Shown here in pieces: positions 33,450 through 51,253 of a stretch of DNA of 64,000 nucleotides. A program made the translations under genes and the position numbers. Location: positions 24,683-88,682 of the forward strand of contig MEPR01000035.1 in NCBI GenBank assembly GCA_001769835.1, given 5' to 3'. Below the pieces are notes generated by a model. It was not told the origin of the DNA and did no database searches. It worked only from the letters and a program-made list of their open reading frames with translations. The DNA is from Bdellovibrionales bacterium GWB1_55_8. GTDB lineage: Bacteria; Bdellovibrionota; UBA1018. How positions within the stretch are numbered: the first letter of the stretch is position 1; each line of letters starts with the position of its first letter.

Positions 33450-33570
33450 CTCATTCAGTCCGCCTATCATTGTATAATTACTTCAGTTTTTATATTCAGT
33501 GTCCGAAGAGCCTAGCGACCCTTCCGGTCTCATTACCCAACCAGCAGTACCGAATTTAGAGGACGACAGG

Positions 33571-35400
33571 ATGAAATCGATTCTCGCACTTGCCCTCGGT
33601 CTCGCGTTTTTGGGTCTCTCAATCCCCCAGGCCAATGCTGAAGGAAGCACTCCTGAAAAAGATTGGACCCTGATGGTTTTTCTGAACGGTGACAACAATC
33701 TCGATTCGTTCGGAACCGCGGATATGAAAGAGATGGAAATGGTCGGCTCGAATGAACGAGTGAACGTCGTCGTTCTTCGGGACACAAACAAATTGAATGT
33801 CAGCTCCAAGATCTTTCACGTCGAAAAAGGAAGCTCCCGAATGGTGAAGGACTACGGGTCCAACATCGATATGGGAGACTGGCAGAACCTGGTCGAATTC
33901 TTCAGATATACGAAAGAGAACTTTCCCGCGAAAAATTATTTCGTGGATATCTGGAATCACGGTGGGGGCTGGAAGAAAAAACTGGAGGAGAACGACCCGC
34001 AGCGCGGGATCTCCTACGATGATCACAGCGGCAATCACATCACGACACCCCAGCTCGGAGAGGCTTTCCGGCAGATGCAGCAGCTGAACGGTGGGAAAAA
34101 AATCGGAATCCTCGGAATGGACGCCTGCGTGATGCAGATGGCGGAAGTTGCGTATGAAGTGAAGGATTCGGCGCGGATCGTGATCGGATCGGAAGATAAC
34201 GAACCGGCAGATGGCTGGGCTTATCAGCTCTTTCTGACGGAGCTGCTGAAAAAACCTGAAATGTCCGCCGAAGAGCTGGGTGTTATCGTCGAACGCGAAT
34301 ATGCCCGATCCTATGACGGAGGAGTGCAAGGCAGGAAGACGGTCCAGGGCAGCGCGGTCTCGACGGAAAAGCTGACGACGTCAGTTGAAAGCCTGAACGC
34401 ATTCCTCAGCCAGGCCATTGCGCTGGCGCCTATTTATCACAGCCAGTTCAAGGATGCGATGAAGCGTGTGCAACAGTTCGGAGAACCCGCCTTTAAGGAT
34501 CTTCAGCACTATTTGATGCTCCTCCGCGGAACCGTGGACCCGGGGCTTCAGCAGCTGATTGATGATGCTTTGAAAGCTCTCGGCGAGGCAGTTCTTGGGA
34601 ACTTCATCACGGGCAGCGGCCTCGGAAACTCTCATGGCATCGCAATCTGGATTCCAGATGCCACTTATCTTCAAGCCAAGCGTTCCCAATATGCCGAACT
34701 CAATTGGGCTCGCGACAGTCTCTGGGATGAGTTTCTCGACGCCATCCTGGTTCCAAAGTTCCCTCTGCTAAGCATTGGAAACATGAACGTGCGTGACCAG
34801 GACGGCGATGGTTTCCTCAAGCCTGGTGAAGCGTTCACCGTTGAAGTGGAGATGAAAAACGAATCCACCACTGCGGCACGAGACGTTCGACTCTCAATGA
34901 CAGGACCGTCCGGGGTCGCCGTGATAAGCCCGCCGATAGTGATCCCTGCCATTGAGAAAGGCAGCATGAAGTTTGATGGTCCCTCCGCGATTCTGGATGC
35001 GGGGGTTTCTCCCGGAAGTTACTCGTTTCGAATTCAGGCGGAAATCAACGGGATCGGTATGATCGAAAAAGATTTCCAGGTCCAGGTCGACAAGGAATAC
35101 ACACTCGAGGACTACGCTGTTTCCACTCCTCATCCATATCCCTCGAATATGAAACAGGAATGGGAGATTTCGAAGGCCGGAGCGGAAGGAATTCGTATTC
35201 ATTTCGCGCGTTTTGAGACCGAAACCCGTTTTGATACGGTGCAAGTCTTTGACAAGGCCGGCAATCTCGTCCTGACGCTGGATGGCATAAAAGACGCGTT
35301 CTGGACTCCCGTGATTCCCGGGGATCTGGTCCGCATTCGGATACAGACCGATGGTTCTGTTGCGCAGTACGGCTTCGACATCGATCGCATCGCTTACTAA
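33571..35400 (+). CDS. clostripain-family (C11) cysteine peptidase with C-terminal beta-rich extension, secreted
   Basis: Signal peptide MKSILALALGLAFLGLSIPQANA. WTLMVFLNGDNNLD, the His in DIWNHGGGW and the Cys in LGMDACVMQ form the C11 His/Cys dyad context. Confidence 0.75.
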   Translation: MKSILALALGLAFLGLSIPQANAEGSTPEKDWTLMVFLNGDNNLDSFGTADMKEMEMVGSNERVNVVVLRDTNKLNVSSKIFHVEKGSSRMVKDYGSNIDMGDWQNLVEFFRYTKENFPAKNYFVDIWNHGGGWKKKLEENDPQRGISYDDHSGNHITTPQLGEAFRQMQQLNGGKKIGILGMDACVMQMAEVAYEVKDSARIVIGSEDNEPADGWAYQLFLTELLKKPEMSAEELGVIVEREYARSYDGGVQGRKTVQGSAVSTEKLTTSVESLNAFLSQAIALAPIYHSQFKDAMKRVQQFGEPAFKDLQHYLMLLRGTVDPGLQQLIDDALKALGEAVLGNFITGSGLGNSHGIAIWIPDATYLQAKRSQYAELNWARDSLWDEFLDAILVPKFPLLSIGNMNVRDQDGDGFLKPGEAFTVEVEMKNESTTAARDVRLSMTGPSGVAVISPPIVIPAIEKGSMKFDGPSAILDAGVSPGSYSFRIQAEINGIGMIEKDFQVQVDKEYTLEDYAVSTPHPYPSNMKQEWEISKAGAEGIRIHFARFETETRFDTVQVFDKAGNLVLTLDGIKDAFWTPVIPGDLVRIRIQTDGSVAQYGFDIDRIAY

Positions 35401-38881: not shown

Positions 38882-39937
38882 TCAGAATCTCCAGAACGCA
38901 AAGACGTGCGGAACGTAACCGTCCACCCCGAATTTCAGCTTTGTGACGTCATACACGTTCAAATTGAGCGACACGTTTAAGTGGTCCCACACGAAAACGT
39001 AGGCGATGTATCCACCCACCGTGCGCGTTTCGAACATGTATTGGGGACCGTAAAGTAGCCTGTCCCAGTTATCGAAGATGTGTTGCGATCCTGTCCGAAT
39101 GGAAGACGTCAAGGACGCCAGCACATCGCCCGGGCGGGTCACCTGTCGATAAAGGTCGGGCGGCGATGCGAGCGTGATAACGGTATGCGAAATCGATTTC
39201 GTATTCGACTTCACATCATAATAAAAGGATAGCCCGGCGCTATACAGATGCAGGCCCTCTTCCGCTGCGTAGCCGGTCCCGACAAGCGAAGTCCCGAGTG
39301 ACAGTGTCGACCACGGACGAGACCAGACCCGGTATTTGAGACCAACATTCGGGTACGCAACTGCGGCCACAAGCACGGTCGATAGCGTCACATCATCACT
39401 GACGCCGTAAAAGACCCGGCTCGCGATATCGAGAAGGACTTCATGCTTATCCAGCGTTTCCGCGGTTTCACCGGTGATACCAAGATACGTCAACGGCTTG
39501 TGACGCCCCTTTCGGCCCGGACCGGACATGAGCAAATCCGTCCGCCCGGGAAAGGCCTCAGCCCCTTTTTCCAGGATCAGGAGCCGATCGCCGGGACGTA
39601 TGAGACCCTGGCCCTCGTGAGCGATGAAACCGAGGGTTGCCTGCCAGGTGTCCAGTGTGGCGCAATTAGATCGAAGAACTTCTGTATAGCCGAGGATCGC
39701 CTTTGTTTCGCGCCCTTCGACTCGATAGCGCTCACCTCGGACCGGGCACGTTCCAGTTCCCTGAGCCTGAAGTTCTGTTTCAGAAAGAACCGCTGAGATA
39801 TGCGCATCCGCAATAGACATAGCATCGGCAAAAGCGAAAGAGCCAGAGGTCGCCGACAAGAGGAGCGCAGCAGTAATAATAGATTGAGCGATACAGATCT
39901 TCACCAGCTTCGCACCTGTCTCAGTCCACGGGGTCAC
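38882..39937 (-). CDS. hypothetical secreted protein, possible outer-membrane beta-barrel (C-terminal F)
   Basis: Signal-like N-terminus, alternating amphipathic strands, terminal ...FAFWRF. Confidence 0.45.
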   Translation of the reverse strand: MTPWTETGAKLVKICIAQSIITAALLLSATSGSFAFADAMSIADAHISAVLSETELQAQGTGTCPVRGERYRVEGRETKAILGYTEVLRSNCATLDTWQATLGFIAHEGQGLIRPGDRLLILEKGAEAFPGRTDLLMSGPGRKGRHKPLTYLGITGETAETLDKHEVLLDIASRVFYGVSDDVTLSTVLVAAVAYPNVGLKYRVWSRPWSTLSLGTSLVGTGYAAEEGLHLYSAGLSFYYDVKSNTKSISHTVITLASPPDLYRQVTRPGDVLASLTSSIRTGSQHIFDNWDRLLYGPQYMFETRTVGGYIAYVFVWDHLNVSLNLNVYDVTKLKFGVDGYVPHVFAFWRF

Positions 39938-39991
39938 AAGATACCATTAAACTACCTTGTGATCCCCGTGCCAAGCCATTCCAGTTCGGAC

Positions 39992-41284
39992 TTAGGCTTT
40001 TCGCTGATCAATGATCCGCTTCAGCTTCCCCGTACGCGGATTTGTAGTCAGGAGACGCGGATCCACCCATTCGATCTCCAGCGGATGGATCAGACCCTTG
40101 GCCACGGACTCTGCAAACATTGGACGCTCCGTACTGAACTCCGCGATGACCTTTTTCTCGAATGCCTTCAATTCATCGATCTGGGCCGATGCGCCGATCC
40201 GCACAACCAAGAGGTCCCGGCCCATTCTGTGCGCGATGACGAGTTGAAATTGATTGAAGTTCATGCCCAGAAGACGTGGAGCTAGAAACGCTCGCATGTC
40301 CTCGTAATAGATCGAAACCGGCCCAACCCTTGCGGCCTCTCCCGAGCGCCCGAGAATAACGTACTTCCGATCCCGAAAACCCGGGGACACTTCCTCGACC
40401 CACTGAGCGCGATCGCCGACCGGGTAACGAATGATCGGCATTAAAATACGCGTCCGGTTGGTGAGAAGAATCCTTCCAGGCCGTTTCGGCTCGAGAATGA
40501 CTTCACCTGTATCCTCATCCACGATTTCCAAATGTGTTGCGTCACCGAAAACACGGTGTTCATCCTGACCGCATTCCGGATCGGCATAGCCGATCGGTCC
40601 GGCATCCACGCTCGCATACCCGATTGAGCGGATATCCACGCCCGGGAAGATCTCCTGCAACCTCTCGCGCTGATCTGAATACATGGACTCTCCGCCAAAG
40701 AGAATCTTCCTTGGCGACACCTTCGGATATCGGGATTTGTTGCGTGAAAAGTACTCTGCCAGGACCAGCAGGGTGGTTGGCACTCCGGCGATCACATCAA
40801 CATCAAAATCGCCGACTATCTTAAGAACCTCTTCCGGGGAGGTAGTGCCCGCGATGGGAAAATGAAGAGCCGGCTCTACGGCTTGCTCGATCGATTTCAT
40901 GATGAAGATGAAAGAAGCGTACAGCTCACCCACGTAAAACAGATTGGCAATGCGTTGGCCCGACTTCAACCCGTTGGCAGACAAGCCACGAGAAAAGACC
41001 TCAGTAAAGCTGTCCCACTCCTCCTGCGAGAATACGGAAAATTTAGGACTGCCGGTGGTACCACCACTCTTGAAAACGATTCCATCAGCCATTGGACGTG
41101 TCAGGAGCTGATTGTGCTGAATTGTATTCGCCGCCCAGAATTCGGTCTGATCGACAATTGGAAGCTGAGATAGTTCCGGAACCCTACCGTCCGCGAACTC
41201 GGCCACACCCACGTATAACTTGCGATAGTAGGACGACTGCTCACGAGCTGTCCGCAGCAACTCTGCCAGTGAGTAGATTTTCAC
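39992..41284 (-). CDS. phenylacetate-CoA ligase-like (PaaK/F390-synthetase-like, ANL superfamily) adenylate-forming enzyme
   Basis: VFKSGGTTGSPKFSVFSQEEW (P-loop-like A3 motif) and PaaK-like size and order. The start overlaps the upstream stop. Confidence 0.7.
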   Translation of the reverse strand: MKIYSLAELLRTAREQSSYYRKLYVGVAEFADGRVPELSQLPIVDQTEFWAANTIQHNQLLTRPMADGIVFKSGGTTGSPKFSVFSQEEWDSFTEVFSRGLSANGLKSGQRIANLFYVGELYASFIFIMKSIEQAVEPALHFPIAGTTSPEEVLKIVGDFDVDVIAGVPTTLLVLAEYFSRNKSRYPKVSPRKILFGGESMYSDQRERLQEIFPGVDIRSIGYASVDAGPIGYADPECGQDEHRVFGDATHLEIVDEDTGEVILEPKRPGRILLTNRTRILMPIIRYPVGDRAQWVEEVSPGFRDRKYVILGRSGEAARVGPVSIYYEDMRAFLAPRLLGMNFNQFQLVIAHRMGRDLLVVRIGASAQIDELKAFEKKVIAEFSTERPMFAESVAKGLIHPLEIEWVDPRLLTTNPRTGKLKRIIDQRKA

Positions 41285-43833
41285 CCGCGGCTCCTGTCTT
41301 CCTCGTCGCGTTCATCGATGATATGCCTGAGCTTGCCGCTTCCAGCGGTCTTCTCGAACTGTTCCGGTGTTATCAACTTCACCTCAAACTCAAGAATACC
41401 GTCCTGCGATACCGATTCGTCCAGGTCCTTGTACTCCGCCAACAAAAGCCCCCTGACCATTTCAGCAGTGAGGCCTCGGTCGCGAAGCACCGATAGCTCC
41501 AGCTTTTCCAGGCCTCGGATACCCGATCCTTTCAAGCGAATCTGGAGTTCCTCCCCATAATCGCGATGATCGGCCAGGATTTTCAGGAATTTCTGGTAAC
41601 TATAGTAGGTCGCCCCGATACGGAAAACGTCTCCATGCCTTCCCAGCAGTTCAAAACGCGGGGATCGACGCCCGCAGGCACAGTCACCTGTGATCCATCT
41701 GCCCACATCACCGATTTCATAGCGCGTCAGGCTCTGCCCCTTTCGGACAAGGGAGGTGAAGATCAGCCTGCCTGCCGTGGCGCCTTCCACCGGCTGATCA
41801 TTATCGAGACCAAGAATCTCCAGTCGATGCAAGCGTCCATGAAGGTGGTGAACGCCTCCCTCCGAGTGCCGGCACTGATAACCCAGCGGGCCAGCGTCGA
41901 CACTGCCATAAGTCGCCGATTTGATCAGATTAATTCCGAACGCGTCCATGAAATAGCGTTTTTGAACTGCATTGAAATGCTCTCCACCATAAAATACTTT
42001 TTCGACTCCGCGGTACGTGCGAAAAAGCTCCTCGTTTTCACGGAAGAGCTGAATCAGGTAGGACGGCATTCCAAGAAGGACATTCACCCGATGCTCCACT
42101 ATCGTACGCGCGACCATCTTGAGGTCGACATGCGCTCCCATCGGAAACTGCACCGTCCCGAGGTGCTCCAGGATAGTGAAGAAACTCACAAAGCCGCCGT
42201 AGAGCCCGCCCGCGAAAAACAGGTTCATGCAACGATCGGCGGCCGGATCCAGCCCCGCTGCGTACAAACCTTCCGCTGCCAGCTGCATCTGGCGGTGATA
42301 ATCGTCATACGTGAACACCGAAAGTTTAGGATCTCCTGAGCTGCCTCCACTCTTGAAGAATAGCTCAGAGAAGCGCGGGTCCACGTCCGCGTTCTGAAAC
42401 ATCGCCTTTGTCAGTATCGGGCCGACGTTAGCCGTCTGGGGCTGCGCCCCTGTCTCCAGATCAGCAAAGTTCGAAATCCCTTTCAAGGACCCGTCTGATT
42501 GGAAGCTCACTCCGCGGCAATACCGTTGCAAGGCATACACACCGTCGTGGGGTTCGCCCGTATAGCCATCAAGCATTTTGCCGGACTCGGTAATGCGAAG
42601 GACGCCTGCACGCAAAAGCAGTCCACCCAGTTCGCTCGCTCGCGAGGCATCGCAAGACAATGCAGCAGTCTGCAGATAGGCGCGCAAAGGCCGCAGAGCG
42701 GAGATAATCTTGTTCTTAGGCAGCGGCTTCAGCCACACGGTCCGATAAAGCGGAGACGCCCTCAAGCCTGAGGCGAACTCAATCAGGATTCTCCAGGCCC
42801 CGTCCTTTGCCTCCATGACTTGCGTAAAATCCAGACAGGACTCCAGACGGCAGAGTTCAGTCACGGAAGTGATCTCAGCCTGTTCGGCGATGCTGGGCTC
42901 GACGGGCGCAACTTTCGGCGACTCAAGGTCCATCACGCGCGCCAGGCGCTCGCCAAAGCGCCTCAACTCACTCCTGTCTTCCGTTTCGACGTACACACAT
43001 TGCGGACTCGAACACGCCTGCTGCTCGATCGCGCAACACTCGCGAGCGATTTTCTCGATTAACTGCTGATCTTCCAGTCGCTCACGTGCAACATAGACGA
43101 AAGAGATTTTTGGCCCCCAGTCCACGAAGCGAGCGGATGAAGGCGTAAGCTTCCGAGCACCCTCGATGCCAGCCTCTCCACCCCACGCGGCAACACCATC
43201 CGCATTGGCCAGAATCTGTTTCAAAAGATCCCGGCCTTCCTCGGTTCGCGAGGAAATGCGCGCGCAATAGATATAATCCCTGAGCATTCCCGCTGAGTCG
43301 CTGTCCACGAGCATGCGAAGCAGGGTCGGCGTAAAAAGAGTATCGTCTCCGCCAATTTTTAGAAAATTCACGTTGCCGGCGAGCAGACCCTCAATGACGC
43401 TCAGAAACCCGACGCTCGGCGAATTCGTTGGCGCAAGGTGAACCAGACATCCCAGAGGAGCCCAGCACTCAAACAGATGTCTGGAGTATTCCACACGGGC
43501 AAGATGAAACGGATCCGCTGAGCCCAACTCCCTTCTTAGCTTCAACTCCAAATTCTCGCGGCGAAGAAAGTCAGCGATTCCGGAAATCGTCTCAGCGACC
43601 TCCGCCTCGGTTACCCCCCCGCCCGCCTGCAAGATATCCGTAAGCTTTCGCGTCTCTGTTCCAGAATCAAGCGTCTTCGACAACGCAGCACACGCATCTA
43701 TCAGCGCGCGGAGATCGAGAGGCGTACCGACAGTTTCTCCGATCAAACCGGAAAGCCCTGAAACGCGCGACTTAAGCTCGGACTCGGAAATCCATTCGCC
43801 TCGCCACAGATGGGGAGCTATCGACCCGTTCAT
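41281..43833 (-). CDS. fusion protein: LuxC-like acyl-CoA reductase domain plus PaaK-like adenylation domain (about 850 aa)
   Basis: The N-terminal half matches the LuxC/ALDH-like fold, with a candidate catalytic Cys in CCAIEQQACSSPQC. The C-terminal half carries FFKSGGSSGDPKLSVFTYDDY and is paralogous to the downstream PaaK-like protein. Start taken at ATG 43833, which overlaps the luxE-like stop (ATGA); the track start at 43935 would overlap by 106 nt. Confidence 0.6.
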   Translation of the reverse strand: MNGSIAPHLWRGEWISESELKSRVSGLSGLIGETVGTPLDLRALIDACAALSKTLDSGTETRKLTDILQAGGGVTEAEVAETISGIADFLRRENLELKLRRELGSADPFHLARVEYSRHLFECWAPLGCLVHLAPTNSPSVGFLSVIEGLLAGNVNFLKIGGDDTLFTPTLLRMLVDSDSAGMLRDYIYCARISSRTEEGRDLLKQILANADGVAAWGGEAGIEGARKLTPSSARFVDWGPKISFVYVARERLEDQQLIEKIARECCAIEQQACSSPQCVYVETEDRSELRRFGERLARVMDLESPKVAPVEPSIAEQAEITSVTELCRLESCLDFTQVMEAKDGAWRILIEFASGLRASPLYRTVWLKPLPKNKIISALRPLRAYLQTAALSCDASRASELGGLLLRAGVLRITESGKMLDGYTGEPHDGVYALQRYCRGVSFQSDGSLKGISNFADLETGAQPQTANVGPILTKAMFQNADVDPRFSELFFKSGGSSGDPKLSVFTYDDYHRQMQLAAEGLYAAGLDPAADRCMNLFFAGGLYGGFVSFFTILEHLGTVQFPMGAHVDLKMVARTIVEHRVNVLLGMPSYLIQLFRENEELFRTYRGVEKVFYGGEHFNAVQKRYFMDAFGINLIKSATYGSVDAGPLGYQCRHSEGGVHHLHGRLHRLEILGLDNDQPVEGATAGRLIFTSLVRKGQSLTRYEIGDVGRWITGDCACGRRSPRFELLGRHGDVFRIGATYYSYQKFLKILADHRDYGEELQIRLKGSGIRGLEKLELSVLRDRGLTAEMVRGLLLAEYKDLDESVSQDGILEFEVKLITPEQFEKTAGSGKLRHIIDERDEEDRSRG

Positions 43834-45014
43834 CGTGACCCCTGGATGAGCTCTGCAGCCGCTACCGCACAGCTCTTGTTCTTGGATGTGCCCGCACGAC
43901 CATGGACCGCAAAATACGGCGTTCCGGTTCCACAAGAACAGCTGCTGCCCTCATGCAGGGAAGCGAGATCGCCCATCAGCACGCTTTGCGCCGGCATGGA
44001 AGTGATATAGGGCGAAACAAAATGAAGGAAGCCACGCTCTCCATACGGCAGAACCTTGAGCGTTCTCACATCCCTGATAAATACCCGCGACCAGACGGGA
44101 ATATGGAACTGATGGGCCCGGCACTCAACGTAAGGAATGCAGTGCTCCACCGAACCAAAGCCGTCGCGCAGCCGTGCATTCGGAATTCCCAGCTGCTCTT
44201 CCACTTGCGCATAGAGCTGGGTCTTGTTGATTGCCTGATCGGCGTGTCCCTTCCAACCGCCACCCAGAAATACCAGGGAATCCGGCGAGAGCCTCAAAGG
44301 CGGAATTCCAAGATCCTTCATCCGCTGCACGGTGAAATACAGGAACGCCGGAAAACCGAAAATTCTGACCGGCAATCCCTCCTCGGCATAGCGCTGAAGC
44401 GCCCCAATGCAGCCGAAGACATCAAAATCGTGCGTCCCGGTTCCAGTCATCCGGAGCGCGTAGAAGCCATTCTTCACGGGAGCATATTTGCACAGGAAAT
44501 TATCCGTGTACGCCGTACCCAGCTTTGATCCCGTCTCGGTTTCGTAGCTGTAAAGAAGGTAATTGGCGCTTTGGCCAGGAGTGACCCAGCCGTACTTATC
44601 AAAGATAAAATCCACCATTCGCTGTGCGCTTCGGATCGACCATTCATCAAAAAAAACCTGCGACTTCTGGCCGGTTGTCCCGGAAGACGTAAGGTGAAGA
44701 AATACCTCGTCGCGCCCGACCGAAAGAGCTTCATGCGCCTTGAAAAAGCTGGCCAGAACGAATGGTACGCGCGCGCAATCCTCAATTTTGTGAATCGATT
44801 CCGGATCAAACGCCCTCTGGTCCAGCAAACGACGATAAAAGGGACTTTTCTCCGCATGCCACCGGATATTTTCCCGCATCGCCCGGACAAAGAGTCGATC
44901 AATCTCGCCTGTTCCGTAACCGGCATACGGATCAGAAAGCGAACAAAGCTTTTCGACAGCGGCCAAACGGCGGCTGTCGGGCACGCATGGTATGCGCGGC
45001 TCATTTTCGCTCAT
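43830..45014 (-). CDS. LuxE-like acyl-protein synthetase family protein
   Basis: 394 aa. HLTSSGTTGQKSQVFFDEWS plus the general LuxE-family pattern (PF04443-like). Confidence 0.65.
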   Translation of the reverse strand: MSENEPRIPCVPDSRRLAAVEKLCSLSDPYAGYGTGEIDRLFVRAMRENIRWHAEKSPFYRRLLDQRAFDPESIHKIEDCARVPFVLASFFKAHEALSVGRDEVFLHLTSSGTTGQKSQVFFDEWSIRSAQRMVDFIFDKYGWVTPGQSANYLLYSYETETGSKLGTAYTDNFLCKYAPVKNGFYALRMTGTGTHDFDVFGCIGALQRYAEEGLPVRIFGFPAFLYFTVQRMKDLGIPPLRLSPDSLVFLGGGWKGHADQAINKTQLYAQVEEQLGIPNARLRDGFGSVEHCIPYVECRAHQFHIPVWSRVFIRDVRTLKVLPYGERGFLHFVSPYITSMPAQSVLMGDLASLHEGSSCSCGTGTPYFAVHGRAGTSKNKSCAVAAAELIQGSR

Positions 45015-46149
45015 TGAATATCTCCAGGGTGTTCAGATACATGTCTTTCCAAAGTTCGATGTACTGCGCGACATAGGGTTTGAACCTCTTCTCGATTTCC
45101 ATTCCACGGAAATTCAAAGGCTCCATCGTGCGGCTCAAGACCACAAAATCGTGCATAGCCCCATCGACTTCGCGCATGGCCGGATAAATCGCGACGGGCA
45201 GGAACTGTGACTGCAGGAGAGTTTCCAGAGAACGGGTGTGTTCGACGCCCATGAGTACCTCGAGATAGGAAACACCAAAGCCTCTGAGTAAACGCAGCAG
45301 CCCCCTGAGCCGACCTTCCAGCGTGTAAACCGGCTGATCGAGCGCAACGATCGCGCAATAACCATCCACCTTTGAAAAATAGGCATAAATCTCCACCTCG
45401 CCGTTTTTCGATGCCATCAGGAGATTAGGGAGATGGAACGGGTAAAATCGATCATAAGGATCCTTGAACGCCTCATTGAAACGACGGAGCACATAATCGG
45501 GCGCGAAGACCAGCTCAAACTCGAGTTCAGGAGCCGCGGGCGCCGGAGTCCATTCATCGCGATCCGTCAGCTCCTGACTCTCTGTTACTCCCAATTGCGC
45601 ATGCAGGACTTCGTAGATCTTTGCCAGTTTGCGCGGAATCCTCTCAGGCCTTCGTCGCCGTTCGAGCACACCCGGCTTGAACTTGGCCAAAAGGGTCGTC
45701 GTTTCGAACTCGCGCAACCGATGTGCGTTGGGGAATATTCCAAGAGGGAGGTAACCATCCCTGAGGAAGGTCAGCTGCGGACCGACGGAAAGCGTGCGAG
45801 TCGTTGTGTATAACGTGTTGAGCGGCCCCGCCTCACTGATCAGGTCCCGACCACCCACGGAGACGAGAGTAGAGCCAACACTTTGCTTGCGGTAATCAGG
45901 GTGGACAACAAGAGCGGCTACTTTGCCCACTTTATTGATGGGATCGAGATCGAAAACAACGGATCCGGCAATCGCACCGGTTGCCTTGTCTCTCGCCACC
46001 AGCCAGTTGTGATCCACCGACGAGATCGTGTCAGCCATTACTTTGGGATCATTGTAAGAGAGCGGATAGCTGTTACCGTAAACGACAAAATACAGCTTCA
46101 GGAGTTCGTTGATATCCGCTAGATAGGCGCTTTCGATCGAGAAAGGCAT
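45001..46149 (-). CDS. two-domain protein with N-terminal GNAT-like acyltransferase domain
   Basis: HNWLVARDKATGAIAGSVVFDLDPINKVGKVAALVVHPDYRKQSVGSTLV resembles GNAT motifs A/B. Start at ATG 46149 with a GGGAG SD; the track start at 46218 would overlap the MFS gene. Confidence 0.45.
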   Translation of the reverse strand: MPFSIESAYLADINELLKLYFVVYGNSYPLSYNDPKVMADTISSVDHNWLVARDKATGAIAGSVVFDLDPINKVGKVAALVVHPDYRKQSVGSTLVSVGGRDLISEAGPLNTLYTTTRTLSVGPQLTFLRDGYLPLGIFPNAHRLREFETTTLLAKFKPGVLERRRRPERIPRKLAKIYEVLHAQLGVTESQELTDRDEWTPAPAAPELEFELVFAPDYVLRRFNEAFKDPYDRFYPFHLPNLLMASKNGEVEIYAYFSKVDGYCAIVALDQPVYTLEGRLRGLLRLLRGFGVSYLEVLMGVEHTRSLETLLQSQFLPVAIYPAMREVDGAMHDFVVLSRTMEPLNFRGMEIEKRFKPYVAQYIELWKDMYLNTLEIFNERK

Positions 46150-46151
46150 GA

Positions 46152-47375
46152 TTAGATCTCCCGAATCCCGGGAATCGCCCGGGTTCCTGCGGCCAGAGCC
46201 ATAAGAATCAATGCGCAAACTACGGCAAATACCTCGACCTGAATCGATTCAATGAAAAATCCGATTAACCCCATTGAAACGGGCAGCGAGGCAACGCTGA
46301 TCAGATTCACCAAACCCATGACTACGGGAACATCTTTCTCTTCGGGACGAGTCTGGAAAAAGTTCAGTATAAAGATGTTCGCAAGCGCCAGGAAAAGGCC
46401 AAGAAATCCTATAGCTATGCAACCAAACATCAACTGCGGCGCTAGAGTGAACCCCAAGTAACTGGCAGCCATCAAGACCAGACTTGCCAAGATCCTGATT
46501 CCCAATCCTCCGGGCACTCGACCAAACGAAAGCCACAGGCTGCCAAGCACGCTGCCCAGCCCCATGAAGAACTCCAGCGTGGCGAGAGTTGAGATCTGGC
46601 CGCCAAAGACATTCTTCGCGTACCACGGCAGGAACACCATCACAGGAGCCAACACAAGATTCATCAGAAGAAAACTCATCAGCATGCCGCGGATCACGCT
46701 TTCCTTTTTAAGAATTCGGAAAATACGCGCGGGTGGCTCCGCCTTCTGTTGAGTGGACGATTCGGGTCGCGGCGGCCGGATACCCATCTCCAAAATGCCG
46801 GAATAAATATAGCTCAGTCCGTTTACCACGAGCAGCCCCGGAAGCCCGACCCATTGGTAAACGAGCACGGAAAACAACGGGCCGAGCACATTTCCCAAAG
46901 AGAAACAGGAGTCGACCATGGCGGTCAGTTCCTGCAGAGATCCAGCAGGAGCAAGTTTCACGGGTAGAGTGAGAATCGCGGGATTAAAAAGGCTGCCCGC
47001 CATGCTGGAAACGAAGGAAACGAAGAACAACAGGGCAAGGACGCCGGAAAATGGCAGGGACTCTGCGCCTGACACAATCGGCAGAGCGGCGGCCGCAAGA
47101 AGGAAGAGCGCGCCCCGGAAAAAGTCAGTCAGGATCACGGTTCTGAGCGGCCCGATCCGCGCGACGATGCGGCCGGAATACGGTGCCAGCAGCAGATGAG
47201 GCAACGTGCTCACTGCGATAAACCAGGGTATCCACTTGGCCGCGAACTGATCCGAAATGATCCAGATCAGCCCGAGTGACATGACTTTATCGCAGACCTG
47301 TGAAATCAGCTGTCCTGCGACAAGCTTTCTGGAATTCGCATCACGAATCACGTCAAACCGGAAATGGGATTTCAT
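46152..47375 (-). CDS. MFS transporter
   Basis: 12 TM segments. GRIVARIGPLRTVILTD contains the MFS loop 2-3 motif. Confidence 0.75.
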   Translation of the reverse strand: MKSHFRFDVIRDANSRKLVAGQLISQVCDKVMSLGLIWIISDQFAAKWIPWFIAVSTLPHLLLAPYSGRIVARIGPLRTVILTDFFRGALFLLAAAALPIVSGAESLPFSGVLALLFFVSFVSSMAGSLFNPAILTLPVKLAPAGSLQELTAMVDSCFSLGNVLGPLFSVLVYQWVGLPGLLVVNGLSYIYSGILEMGIRPPRPESSTQQKAEPPARIFRILKKESVIRGMLMSFLLMNLVLAPVMVFLPWYAKNVFGGQISTLATLEFFMGLGSVLGSLWLSFGRVPGGLGIRILASLVLMAASYLGFTLAPQLMFGCIAIGFLGLFLALANIFILNFFQTRPEEKDVPVVMGLVNLISVASLPVSMGLIGFFIESIQVEVFAVVCALILMALAAGTRAIPGIREI

Positions 47376-48778
47376 TTTTTCGGCTCAGCCACTCGAATCA
47401 CGCGAACCCGGTCTTGTGAGTAGCCGCCCGTAAGCGCGGAGATAAGAATACCGGGTTCGGTGCCGGAACGGACAAAGTCGATGGGAACCTCGACAAAGTG
47501 TTCGAGCAACATACCCATCACATCGTTGTTGCCGATTCTTGCCAGATCGCTCTCGGATTCGCGGGTTGTATAGGGATCGGCCAGCACGGACCTCGGCGAA
47601 GCAATGAAGGTTCCGCCGTTCTGAAGGACAAGACCGGCAAGGTTCTTTACGAAGAGAGTACCTTTTTCACTCTTGGCCACCTGGCAGGAGACAAGATTGA
47701 TTCTTGCGTCTTCCGCAAACAGATCTTTGGGCCATTCTTCGACGAAGGGACGCAAACGTCCAAGGGCTTTCTGGTTCACCTCTCCCCGGCTGTCGAACCA
47801 TTTCCAAGGCTGAACGATGTCCTCTATACCACCCGAACGAAGATCAAAGTTGCCCTTGGATCCATGCGAGGTCAGAACCACCTCCTTGATTCGGCCTCTC
47901 TTTTGTAACTGTCCAAGTTTTTGAAGCATCTCCTCGGGCGTGGAGACTGTCATCGTGACGACTTGAGAGTCATCGAGTTGATTATACCTGGTCCTTTGAT
48001 TCACAAAAAAGTCTGAGCCCTTTTTTGCGAGCTCCGCCGCGCCGGCCGGCAAAACGACAACCATGAGTTCGTCTTTTTTAAATGGTTCACCGGGAGGCAC
48101 AGCCTGATCCAACTCATTGATGAATGTCGTCCCGCGATCTCGCAAAATGGAGGGCACGTTGTATCCAGCGACGGTCATCGCTGAATAGCCCACGGCGTAC
48201 GGTACATTCTTGTAGATGAGCTCGGCCGGCATGATCAGGATTTCCTTCACCTTCTCCACGGACCGATTGGATTTCCTGGCCAACATCAAAGTCTTCCCGA
48301 GCATCACAGGAGGAATGCGAACACCGTCCCAGAGAACGAAGGCAGGCGCGAAACTCGTGCGGATTCCCTTTTCCGCCAGACAATACGCGAAGTCAAAACA
48401 ACGATAGCTCTTCTTGAGAGCCTGCTTCGCCGGAACCGGGAGTCGGTTCAGCATCTTGTTATTCAAAACAGCTTCGGCATCGGACCGATCACTTTTCAGA
48501 AACTCAACGATGGGTGCGATTTCTCTTTTCCAGTGCTCGGAGGCACGGCTTTTCATGCTCGGTATGATTTGCTGAAAAAGCGGTTTCACGCACCCGGATT
48601 GTTTCGCGGCAAGATCCTGGTCCGCAAACGAAGGCACGCCGTGAGGCAGGACCAGGAGCGCCAGGAACACTATGATGCCAATGGAGCGACGGAGCTTCAC
48701 AGTGACTCTTCGGACATTGGTGAATAAAAACTCAGGAAATATCGAATAGCATCGCCTGGTTCCATCCAGTTCGGTCAA
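47372..48778 (-). CDS. hypothetical secreted protein with possible clan-CD (caspase/CHAT-like) His-Gly...Cys dyad in C-terminal domain
   Basis: Signal peptide (from GTG 48700: MKLRRSIGIIVFLALLVLPHGVPSFA). EVVLTSHGSKGNFDL and ARINLVSCQVAKS each follow a hydrophobic block, as in clan CD peptidases. Confidence 0.4.
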   Translation of the reverse strand: MTELDGTRRCYSIFPEFLFTNVRRVTVKLRRSIGIIVFLALLVLPHGVPSFADQDLAAKQSGCVKPLFQQIIPSMKSRASEHWKREIAPIVEFLKSDRSDAEAVLNNKMLNRLPVPAKQALKKSYRCFDFAYCLAEKGIRTSFAPAFVLWDGVRIPPVMLGKTLMLARKSNRSVEKVKEILIMPAELIYKNVPYAVGYSAMTVAGYNVPSILRDRGTTFINELDQAVPPGEPFKKDELMVVVLPAGAAELAKKGSDFFVNQRTRYNQLDDSQVVTMTVSTPEEMLQKLGQLQKRGRIKEVVLTSHGSKGNFDLRSGGIEDIVQPWKWFDSRGEVNQKALGRLRPFVEEWPKDLFAEDARINLVSCQVAKSEKGTLFVKNLAGLVLQNGGTFIASPRSVLADPYTTRESESDLARIGNNDVMGMLLEHFVEVPIDFVRSGTEPGILISALTGGYSQDRVRVIRVAEPKK

Positions 48779-48853
48779 AGAACTGACGCTGCCCGTAATT
48801 TGTCAAGCAGCCGGTCAGATATTCCGAAAGGAAATCGGAGCAAGGAGATCACC

Positions 48854-49552
48854 ATGGGAGAACTGAGAACTGCAATCATTTGGACCGCCGTTTGCGCCGG
48901 GCTCTTTGGCGCTTTTCCGACAGCCGGCGAAGCGGCGGAAGTCGATTCCGCGACACCCGAAGCAGCTGCTTCGCCGAGCGTACCGGAAACTGCAGCAATA
49001 CCGGCCCTTGCCCCTGCGCCAACGGATACGCCGCCATCTTCGCCGGTAACACAGGAAACGAGAGACGGCCTTGCGCTCGGCGGACAGATTTTTCTTTCCA
49101 TTCAGAACTGGTCCAAAGTCGGCATGGCCGGTGATGCGAAGCTCGGAATCGGGGTGGGCGGCTCGCTTGGACTCGGCTTTCGGCTGGGTGACATGAAGGT
49201 CACCGTTGGTCCGGCGCTTTGGACCAACTCCTGGTCAGCCGACTATTCGTCAAAGGCCCAGAGCGCCACAAGTCGCGTCTATGTGACAATGAACGACGCC
49301 GGGATTTCACTCGTCTCTTACCTGGATGACATGTTCATTGAGCTCGGAACGGGGAACTCAACCATCAAATCGGGGATGATGGTCAGCGGAGAAGATATTC
49401 CCTACCCCTATGACGGGACCAGCTATTCCTATAAGTGCTTCGGAATTGGCTTCAAGAATGAGTCGTTTTTGGTCGGTCTCGGAATCAAGAATTACGACGG
49501 TTACGCCAAGGCCGCGAACCACGCGAATTTCATGATCGGACTGGGATTCTAA
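48854..49552 (+). CDS. putative outer-membrane beta-barrel protein (porin-like), 232 aa
   Basis: AGGAG SD 6 nt before ATG 48854. Signal peptide, Pro/Ala-rich linker, alternating beta-strand pattern, C-terminal ...MIGLGF. Confidence 0.5.
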
Positions 49553-49558
49553 AAATAG

Positions 49559-49648
49559 TGGCGGAGAGAAAGGGATTCGAACCCTTGTTACGGTTGCCCG
49601 TAAACACGCTTTCCAAGCGTGCTCCTTCAACCACTCGGACATCTCTCC
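49559..49648 (-). tRNA. tRNA-Ser (anticodon GGA), CCA encoded
   Basis: Reverse complement reads GGAGAGATGTCCGAGTGGTTGAAGGAGCACGCTTGGAAAGCGTGTTTACGGGCAACCGTAACAAGGGTTCGAATCCCTTTCTCTCCGCCA. It has a 7-bp acceptor stem, a D-loop GTGGTTGAA, an anticodon loop TTGGAAA (GGA), a long variable arm and a T-loop GGTTCGAATCC. Confidence 0.85.
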
Positions 49649-49852: not shown

Positions 49853-51253
49853 GTGCCGAAACTAAGTAACTATGGCGACTATCTATCAAAGTCGCCGCTT
49901 CTGGTTTTCCTCATCTCTGTTTTCGGAGTGTTTACGTTCGAGTTGCTGATCATGCTAATGATCGACGACTGGAATCTTTCTGTATTTCAAATCGCGGCGC
50001 TTGATTCCACCCTTCTCAGTCTGGTCACTGTGGCGCTCTTCTGGTTCGTCATATTCTCTCCAATGAAGGCATCTCTGGTGCGACGCCTGGACGCGGAAAA
50101 GCAGAAGGAAACACTTCAAAGTCAGCTCTTCCATTCGGCCAAGCTGGCAACTATCGGGACAATGGCCGCGGGAATCGCGCACGAAATCAACAATCCCCTG
50201 GCGATCATGCTTGGGAATGAGGAGTTACTCAGGGAGCGGATTAGAAAACTGGAACACCTGGACCCGCAGCTCCTGCGGCATCTCGATCGCCAAAAGGAAG
50301 CCGGGGAGAGAATCGCGCGGATCGTGAAGGGACTGAGGGCAGCGGCTAGAGCAGAAACTGATTCCTCCGAATCCGTCGACTTGCGGGAACTCTGGCCAAA
50401 GCTGACCGAAATTGCCGAGGTACTGCTGAGTTCCACTCCGATCCAACTCGTGCTTGAGGAGTGGGAGGGGGAACGATTTGTTCAGGCAAATCAGGATGAG
50501 CTGATGCAGGTGATTGCCAATCTTCTGTCGAACGCGAAAGACGCCTTGAAAGAGCAAACATCCGGATCGATCAGGGTCAGCGCGCGGGAGCTGGACGATA
50601 AAATCGACATTCTTGTCTCGGATACTGGCTCAGGTATTTCAAAAGAGAATCTTGCAAGAATATTTGATCCTTTCTACACGACGAAGGCACCAGGAGAGGG
50701 GACCGGTCTCGGGCTTTCGATATCCCACAGAATCGTAACCAACTTTGGCGGCACTATTACAGTTGAGTCGACACAAGGAGTTGGTACGACCTTCCTGATC
50801 CGTCTTCCTCGCGCGGCTGATCGGCCTAAACCAAAACTCCCGCCTGAGCAGCTTCCGCAGGGCCAATTCTTGAAAAAGAGTCGCGTCCTGGTGGCCGACG
50901 ACGAACCTGCGGTACGGGAAATTCTTTCGAAATGGCTTTCGAACAGCGGATATATCGTTGAGCTGGCCAGCGACGGCCACGACGCGCTTCGCAAACTTCA
51001 AAGCCAATCTTGCGACATTCTGATCACGGATCTGTGCATGCCTGGAATGTCCGGCGAAAAGCTGATTCAGACTATCAGAAACTCAAGCCTCTATCCCGAA
51101 ATGAAAATCGCTGTAATCACGGGCGGGATTTTTCCCGACAGCTCAAACTCCGAAGGCACTTCTCAACCACCTCTTGCCGATGGATATCTCGAAAAGCCAT
51201 TCACCCGCGACGCTCTTTCAAAGCTCCTGCTGTCTCTCCAAGCCCCTGTTTAG
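49853..51253 (+). CDS. hybrid sensor histidine kinase/response regulator
   Basis: Two TM segments. HisKA box GIAHEINNPL. HATPase motifs SDTGSGISKENLARIFDPFYTTK and GTGLGLSIS. C-terminal REC domain VLVADDEP...DILITDLCMPGMSG. Confidence 0.8.
   Translation: MPKLSNYGDYLSKSPLLVFLISVFGVFTFELLIMLMIDDWNLSVFQIAALDSTLLSLVTVALFWFVIFSPMKASLVRRLDAEKQKETLQSQLFHSAKLATIGTMAAGIAHEINNPLAIMLGNEELLRERIRKLEHLDPQLLRHLDRQKEAGERIARIVKGLRAAARAETDSSESVDLRELWPKLTEIAEVLLSSTPIQLVLEEWEGERFVQANQDELMQVIANLLSNAKDALKEQTSGSIRVSARELDDKIDILVSDTGSGISKENLARIFDPFYTTKAPGEGTGLGLSISHRIVTNFGGTITVESTQGVGTTFLIRLPRAADRPKPKLPPEQLPQGQFLKKSRVLVADDEPAVREILSKWLSNSGYIVELASDGHDALRKLQSQSCDILITDLCMPGMSGEKLIQTIRNSSLYPEMKIAVITGGIFPDSSNSEGTSQPPLADGYLEKPFTRDALSKLLLSLQAPV

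Follow-up and report, generated by a model that had tools for sequence, protein, structure and literature searches.

Leupeptin and other peptide aldehydes are in standard use as protease inhibitors; in Klebsiella, they also give rise to pyrazinone signals with effects on bacterial iron uptake and a human histamine receptor. The Klebsiella leup operon, leupABCD with an adjacent transporter gene, yields leupeptin (Ac-Leu-Leu-argininal) without a nonribosomal peptide synthetase (NRPS) (Li et al. 2020, Angew Chem 59:17872, cited in PMC8283571 and PMC11480411); its products comprise leupeptin, a Lys analogue, and derived pyrazinones, and the pathway has been described as narrowly distributed (PMC11480411). 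Hosts of the leup operon are Klebsiella michiganensis/oxytoca, Photorhabdus, and Xenorhabdus, and descriptions of this ligase-based, NRPS-free route are as yet limited to a few gammaproteobacterial pathogens. Here, we analyzed a stretch of 64,000 nucleotides (the window) from Bdellovibrionales bacterium GWB1_55_8 (contig MEPR01000035.1, positions 24,683 to 88,682), in which six genes on the minus strand (G1-G6) form an operon. Five of them (G2-G6, 39992-47375) probably constitute an NRPS-independent, leup-type cassette, the predicted product of which is an exported N-acyl (tri)peptide aldehyde.

The gene content of leup was rebuilt from primer sequences and coordinates in PMC8283571, which gives the primers leupA_f and leupB_r and a leupABCD span of 315,353-321,183 in K. 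oxytoca CAV1374, with an 'adjacent transporter'. The leupA_f primer located DNA of K. michiganensis DSM 25444 (L005), in which leupB_r lies 1235 bp away, as published. In this locus and in a longer copy (L006), the genes encode, in this order, a major facilitator superfamily (MFS) transporter, a LuxE-like protein (LeupA, 375-378 aa), a LuxC-PaaK fusion (LeupB, 802 aa), a PaaK-like protein (LeupC, 444-446 aa), and a GNAT acyltransferase (LeupD, 305 aa). The four leup genes cover 5.83 kb in K. michiganensis, equal to the published span, and the MFS gene lies upstream.

BLASTP comparison with the K. michiganensis proteins gave 53% identity between G4 and LeupA (E 4e-144), 41% over 762 aa between G5 and LeupB (E 0.0), and 39% between G6 and LeupC (E 7e-91). 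LeupA, LeupB, and LeupC were reciprocal best matches of G4, G5, and G6 within the window (tblastn and BLASTP). For the ligases, orthologues shared 39-41% identity versus 28-29% for paralogues; their orthology is one-to-one because G6 is only 29% identical to the ligase half of LeupB. Both operons encode a LuxE-like protein, a LuxC-PaaK fusion, a PaaK-like ligase, a GNAT protein, and an MFS transporter, the three core enzymes correspond one-to-one (39-53% identity), the acyl-cysteines are kept, and both are compact and translationally coupled, without an NRPS. An earlier examination of the same DNA, made from the letters alone (the sequence-only reading), knew of no characterized pathway with exactly this gene set; leupABCD with its transporter matches it, and the operon is not an orphan pathway but a diverged member of the NRPS-independent peptide-aldehyde family of the leupeptin type.

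The domain calls of that reading (MFS, GNAT, LuxE, LuxC plus PaaK fusion, PaaK-like ligase) agreed with Pfam, as did the models it had put forward for checking: PF05893 (LuxC) matched G5, PF04443 (LuxE) matched G4, and AMP-binding domains (PF00501) were present in G5 and G6 (scores in Table 1). The LuxC and LuxE matches in G5 and G4 were family-specific by Pfam, NCBIfam, and alignment to PDB entry 7xc6. Within G5, a LuxC-type thioester reductase (residues ~40-445) is followed by a PaaK-like adenylating ligase (~490-850), and this C-terminal half matched the structures of PaaK (4r1l, E 1.5e-17) and of the PaaK-like ligases 6wuq and 6siw. NCBIfam PaaK-type models also matched G6, with scores under their cut-offs.

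The LuxC-LuxE reductase (PDB 7xc6, solved by cryo-electron microscopy) shares two families with the operon, and its key residues all align. In LuxE, Cys364 is the self-acylation site and Lys238/Arg355 are the adenylation pair (PMC9157457); they align (chain 7xc6_E) with Cys382, Lys255, and Arg373 of G4, for which the same roles are predicted. Cys274 of G5, in the motif EQQACSSPQ, aligns with the acylated Cys (QQAC) of LuxC (chain 7xc6_A). The relay logic is likewise similar: in LuxC-LuxE, adenylation is followed by thioester formation on the C-terminal Cys of LuxE, transfer to the LuxC Cys, and NADPH-dependent reduction to the aldehyde (PMC9157457). In contrast to the luminous system, the operon has no luxA, luxB, or luxD, its LuxC domain is fused to a ligase, and the predicted substrate is an acyl-peptide instead of myristate.

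In the translations, both ligase modules contain a P-loop (FKSGGSSGDPK in G5, FKSGGTTGSPK in G6) and a C-terminal GK(L)xxIID lysine motif. By sequence, both modules match the PaaK-like ligases 6siw and 6wuq (AjiA1) and the NCBIfam BagE/FevW models, although identity is low (E 1e-7 to 1e-10) and the substrates of those enzymes are aromatic acids. We take 6wuq and 6siw to join acyl-adenylates directly to substrate nucleophiles without coenzyme A (CoA), and the same direct route, from acyl-adenylate to amide bond, is predicted for the two modules of the operon.

All six open reading frames (ORFs) were found, co-directional, where the sequence-only reading had placed them, and its six-gene operon stands, the junctions having been read directly (Table 1). 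Its statement that adjacent genes are joined solely by 4-nt overlaps or 2-nt gaps holds for four of the five junctions, whereas G3 and G4 overlap by 14 nt. The starts it had chosen for G3 (46149) and G5 (43833), which are internal to the longest ORFs, agree with homologue alignments. Membership of the transporter is indicated by position, as G2 (MFS_1) overlaps or abuts its operon neighbors. Scans for promoters and terminators gave matches no more common than in shuffled sequence.

Table 1. Operon genes, the adjacent gene G7, and gene junctions (positions in the window).
Feature	Position	Strand	Assignment	Basis
G1	47372..48700	-	secreted 442-aa DUF4347 protein	Pfam, homologue alignment
G2	46152..47375	-	MFS transporter, presumed exporter	Pfam MFS_1, 77.7 bits
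G3	45001..46149	-	382-aa acyltransferase, N-terminal GNAT	Pfam Acetyltransf_1 residues 28-96, 26.8 bits
G4	43830..45014	-	LuxE-like acyl-protein synthetase, LeupA orthologue	PF04443, 116 bits
G5	41281..43833	-	LuxC plus PaaK-like fusion, LeupB orthologue	PF05893, 264 bits; PF00501
G6	39992..41284	-	stand-alone PaaK-like adenylating ligase, LeupC orthologue	PF00501, 34.9 bits
G7	38882..39937	-	351-aa protein with signal peptide; membership doubtful	ORF only
Junction G1/G2			ATGA overlap	read from sequence
Junction G2/G3			TAA-tc-ATG, 2-nt gap	read from sequence
Junction G3/G4			14-nt overlap (ATGAGCGAAAATGA)	read from sequence
Junction G4/G5			ATGA overlap	read from sequence
Junction G5/G6			GTGA overlap; start of G6 is GTG	read from sequence

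The gene arrangement exceeds chance, as the block G2-G6 came up again in eight further G5-type loci of distant taxa. The full block occurs in Massilia, Bacteriovorax stolpii, metagenome-assembled genomes (MAGs) of Elusimicrobiota and Obscuribacterales, and three further MAGs; in L016 (303-8563, a Candidatus Magnetomoraceae MAG), the acyltransferase and the transporter are exchanged, and the order is LuxE, LuxC/PaaK, PaaK, a 492-aa HATPase_c_2 plus GNAT protein, and an SNF-family transporter. Altogether, G5-type cassettes are kept across phyla, with representatives in Bdellovibrionales MAGs, Bacteriovorax, Elusimicrobiota, Obscuribacterales, Smithellaceae, Magnetomoraceae, and Beta-/Gammaproteobacteria. 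The sequence-only reading had asked for conserved co-occurrence, and LuxC/LuxE genes were indeed clustered, not scattered, in every related genome examined. A generic aldehyde dehydrogenase with a CoA ligase of primary metabolism was rejected on the strength of the family-specific LuxC/LuxE matches and the conserved cassette. Transposase or integrase genes lie beside the cassettes of Massilia (L001, 14006-14662), Chitinimonas (L012, 14101-16333), and one MAG (L009, 13439-14749), which fits a horizontal spread of the cassette.

The order MFS, ~385-aa GNAT, LuxE, fusion, and PaaK is shared by the window, Bacteriovorax (L003), L007-L009, and Obscuribacterales (L015), and the ~385-aa GNAT gene precedes the MFS gene in Massilia (L001) and Elusimicrobiota (L014). 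LeupB-clade loci (L006, L012, L013) have the order MFS, LuxE, fusion, PaaK, and a 297-320-aa GNAT. The window operon differs from leup in that the GNAT gene lies ahead of LuxE instead of last and encodes a member of the ~385-aa family versus the 297-320-aa LeupD; in addition, the MFS transporters are not orthologous, the window contains an extra secreted DUF4347 gene, and its host is represented by a Bdellovibrionales MAG versus an enterobacterial pathogen or symbiont. New in comparison with the described systems are the distinct acyltransferase/exporter pair, the wide phyletic spread beyond gammaproteobacterial pathogens, and, in a predatory lineage, the joining of the operon to a gene for a secreted caspase-like protein. 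The cassette provides a genome-mining signature that NRPS-centered tools tend to overlook, and new inhibitor or signal chemotypes are predicted from it.

The GNAT domain of G3 aligned with the LeupD family at an hhalign probability of 97.5% (E 7e-12, GNAT domain only). Homology to LeupD was confined to this domain of ~135 aa, the C-terminal half remaining unaligned; BLASTP reached only E 0.004, and a tblastn search with LeupD against the whole window found nothing. G3 would be the functional counterpart of LeupD. Its orthologues (31-54% identity) were present in every examined G5-type cassette except L016, and the family comprises about 254 representative clusters at 50% identity. The conserved C-terminal 230 residues had no match in Pfam or the PDB, and a structure model from the single sequence was unusable (predicted local distance difference test, pLDDT, 29.6). 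Three matches of G3 (P0259, P0333, P0289) are naturally occurring single polypeptides in which an MFS transporter is fused to the ~385-aa GNAT protein, and the acyltransferase is therefore functionally tied to the exporter. The fusions imply that capping and export may be physically or functionally coupled in G5-type cassettes. G2 is 37-52% identical to the cassette MFS proteins of L001, L003, L007-L009, L014, and L015.

From the domain composition, we infer the following route, including the order of the steps, the identity of the residues, and the acyl cap. Using an acyl-CoA, G3 would cap the amino terminus, either at the stage of the first residue or once the peptide is finished. The two ligase modules, G6 and the PaaK-like half of G5, would each activate a carboxylate as acyl-adenylate for attack by the amino group of the following amino acid, giving two amide bonds. 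G4 would then adenylate the acyl-peptide at its C-terminal carboxylate and hold it as thioester on its own Cys382, from which its flexible tail may pass the acyl group to Cys274 of the G5 LuxC domain for NAD(P)H-dependent reduction to the C-terminal aldehyde. Export would be accomplished by G2. The product is predicted to act as a covalent-reversible inhibitor of serine/cysteine proteases, and trimming and cyclization could convert it to pyrazinone signals. With a single capping enzyme, two ligases of the amide-forming type, and one reductase pair, the cassette has the number of activities required for an N-acyl tripeptide aldehyde like leupeptin. The same product class, with ATP activation and NAD(P)H reduction, is predicted as for the NRPS-derived peptide aldehydes (Streptomyces leupeptin, livipeptin, and flavopeptin; PMC10548850). 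The NRPS route, which ends in a reductase (R) domain, uses entirely different machinery: the window cassette has no adenylation-thiolation-condensation (A-T-C) modules, carrier proteins, or R domains of the short-chain dehydrogenase/reductase (SDR) type, and the two are convergent.

The first gene of the operon, G1, was assigned to 48778-47372 in the sequence-only reading. The ORF indeed reaches TTG 48778, but the true start is most probably GTG 48700, which has AAGAG ahead of it and yields a protein with a signal peptide and the N-terminus MKLRRS; from this start, G1 is identical to a 442-aa public gene call (P0241). DUF4347 was the sole Pfam match (29.5 bits). A search of 5.8 billion proteins yielded just two homologues, of which at least one comes from a Bdellovibrionales MAG. 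Invariant in all three sequences are His279-Gly280 and Ser338-Cys339, which stand in the residue order of clan CD peptidases and follow strands 270-277 and 328-337 in a low-confidence model. This AlphaFold 2 model, built from the three sequences (pLDDT 41.6), was unusable, and a Foldseek search of the PDB with it gave no match at E<=0.001, only non-significant ones to generic alpha/beta proteins, with caspase-1 and caspase-2 at E ~0.06-0.1. Of the earlier description of G1 as a clan-CD-like member of the operon, the His-Gly...Cys order and the operon position were borne out, whereas no G1 homologue was found in the 13 other cassette loci. One homologue stands alone (L010), with no cassette nearby, and apart from G1 there is no synteny between L010 and the window. 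Because it is missing from related cassettes and its homologue occurs alone elsewhere, G1 is a lineage-specific add-on outside the conserved system; it is plausibly a secreted cysteine peptidase that joined the operon in one lineage. Literature searches on LuxC/LuxE/PaaK clusters, LuxC- and LuxE-like proteins, DUF4347, and leupeptin ligases gave nothing further of relevance.

The earlier prediction that carboxylate reduction of the LuxC/LuxE type gives a small exported metabolite is sensible, and so is that of no light production, since no luxAB domains were present in the operon or the flanking genes scanned. The metabolite itself was taken to be a fatty aldehyde or alcohol, an N-acyl amino acid, or the like, formed by reduction of an activated fatty acid and exported. 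Homology favors an N-acyl peptide aldehyde, which is the most likely of these products on the sequence comparisons above, and we consider the lipid product improbable. A lipid substrate is in keeping with the Pfam families LuxC and LuxE, which were established with the myristic-acid reductase from luminous bacteria, with the acyl donor of G3, which is not fixed, and with the unique C-terminal half of G3. The nearest characterized relatives of G4-G6 are nevertheless the leupeptin enzymes and not LuxC/LuxE: the scores of G4 (89 versus a cut-off of 550) and G5 (81.8 versus 750) lie far under the NCBIfam LuxE and LuxC equivalog cut-offs, no LuxD-type acyl-carrier-protein thioesterase was present among the operon and flanking genes scanned, and two extra ligases of the amide-forming type would be superfluous for a fatty aldehyde and exactly right for a tripeptide. 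Several points weigh against an N-acyl peptide aldehyde too. Besides the fatty acyl substrates on which LuxC/LuxE were first defined, G3 shares only its GNAT domain with LeupD and is not its orthologue, and the assignment of enzymes to steps was drawn from domain logic and not from a cited source. Furthermore, an all-versus-all BLASTP comparison of 165 fusion proteins placed G5 outside the tight LeupB clade. Identities were at least 50.2% within the LeupB set (Klebsiella, Mixta, Erwinia, Yersinia, Morganella, Providencia, Pseudomonas, Chitinimonas, and Janthinobacterium) and at most 47.5% between the sets, with the G5 set being diverse (38-95%); substrates and product may therefore differ substantially from those of leup.

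If the product is a peptide aldehyde, its relation to G1 can be conceived in two ways, and any link between G1 and the cassette product is a hypothesis only. The leup-type product could be mainly a precursor, which G1 as a secreted cysteine protease would trim outside the cytoplasm; cyclization of the trimmed peptide would give a pyrazinone-type signal, a fate known for leupeptin in Photorhabdus, Xenorhabdus, and Klebsiella. This agrees with the ATGA overlap of G1 and G2, the signal peptide, and the invariant His279-Gly280 and Ser338-Cys339, each after a predicted beta-strand; a leupeptin-cleaving protease has reportedly been found in Photorhabdus, and leupeptin-derived pyrazinones are documented (PMC11480411). 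It appears unlikely in view of the distribution of G1, absent from all 13 other cassettes examined and once encoded alone, and of its merely putative protease activity, the fold model being unusable and the caspase matches non-significant. Alternatively, proteases could be the targets. At 33499-35400 (plus strand), 4.6 kb from the operon end, the window encodes a 633-aa clostripain-family Peptidase_C11 (clan CD) with a C-terminal CUB domain, and enzymes of the clostripain and gingipain types are classical examples of proteases sensitive to leupeptin. A producer-target relation is thus conceivable, in which the aldehyde would keep the C11 peptidase and/or G1, with its clan-CD-like dyad, latent until diluted from the cell, resembling the interplay of leupeptin and trypsin-like proteases in Streptomyces. 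The evidence for it is positional, however; predators encode many proteases, so nearness may be chance, and the neighbors of other cassettes show no protease by Pfam label, the sole check made. We regard such a relation as rather improbable. Whether a predator would use a protease inhibitor for self-protection, for control of its own secreted proteases, or for signaling is the question raised by the locus. A wider view, which we hold tentatively and think doubtful as a whole, is that the leup operon is a narrow branch of a far larger and more varied multi-phylum family of NRPS-independent LuxE/LuxC-PaaK/PaaK cassettes. The branch represented in the window would use an undescribed two-domain acyltransferase, in some cases fused to the exporter, to make chemically new acyl-peptide aldehydes, which G1 would turn into a signal or which would control G1.

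Downstream of G6, a spacer of 54 nt leads to G7, which is perhaps co-transcribed and ends in ...FAFWRF, resembling an outer-membrane beta-barrel protein. G7 had no Pfam or NCBIfam match and no homologue in the 13 related cassette loci, and for the latter reason it was rejected as a cassette member. The spacer contains a hairpin, GGGGATCACAAG-N15-CTTGTGACCCC, at 39930-39967 (minus strand), which overlaps the GTG start of G7, is followed by no T-tract, and may be a translational or processing element. On the other side of the operon, a small secreted Ala/Pro-rich protein ending in ...MIGLGF is encoded divergently (48800-49552, plus strand). Past this gene lies a tRNA-Ser(GGA) (49559-49648, minus strand), the sole Rfam match, which could mark an old integration site; the GC content of the window showed no island signature. 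Directly upstream of the operon region, a hybrid histidine kinase with HisKA, HATPase_c, and receiver domains (49853-51253, plus strand) is a candidate regulator of the operon.

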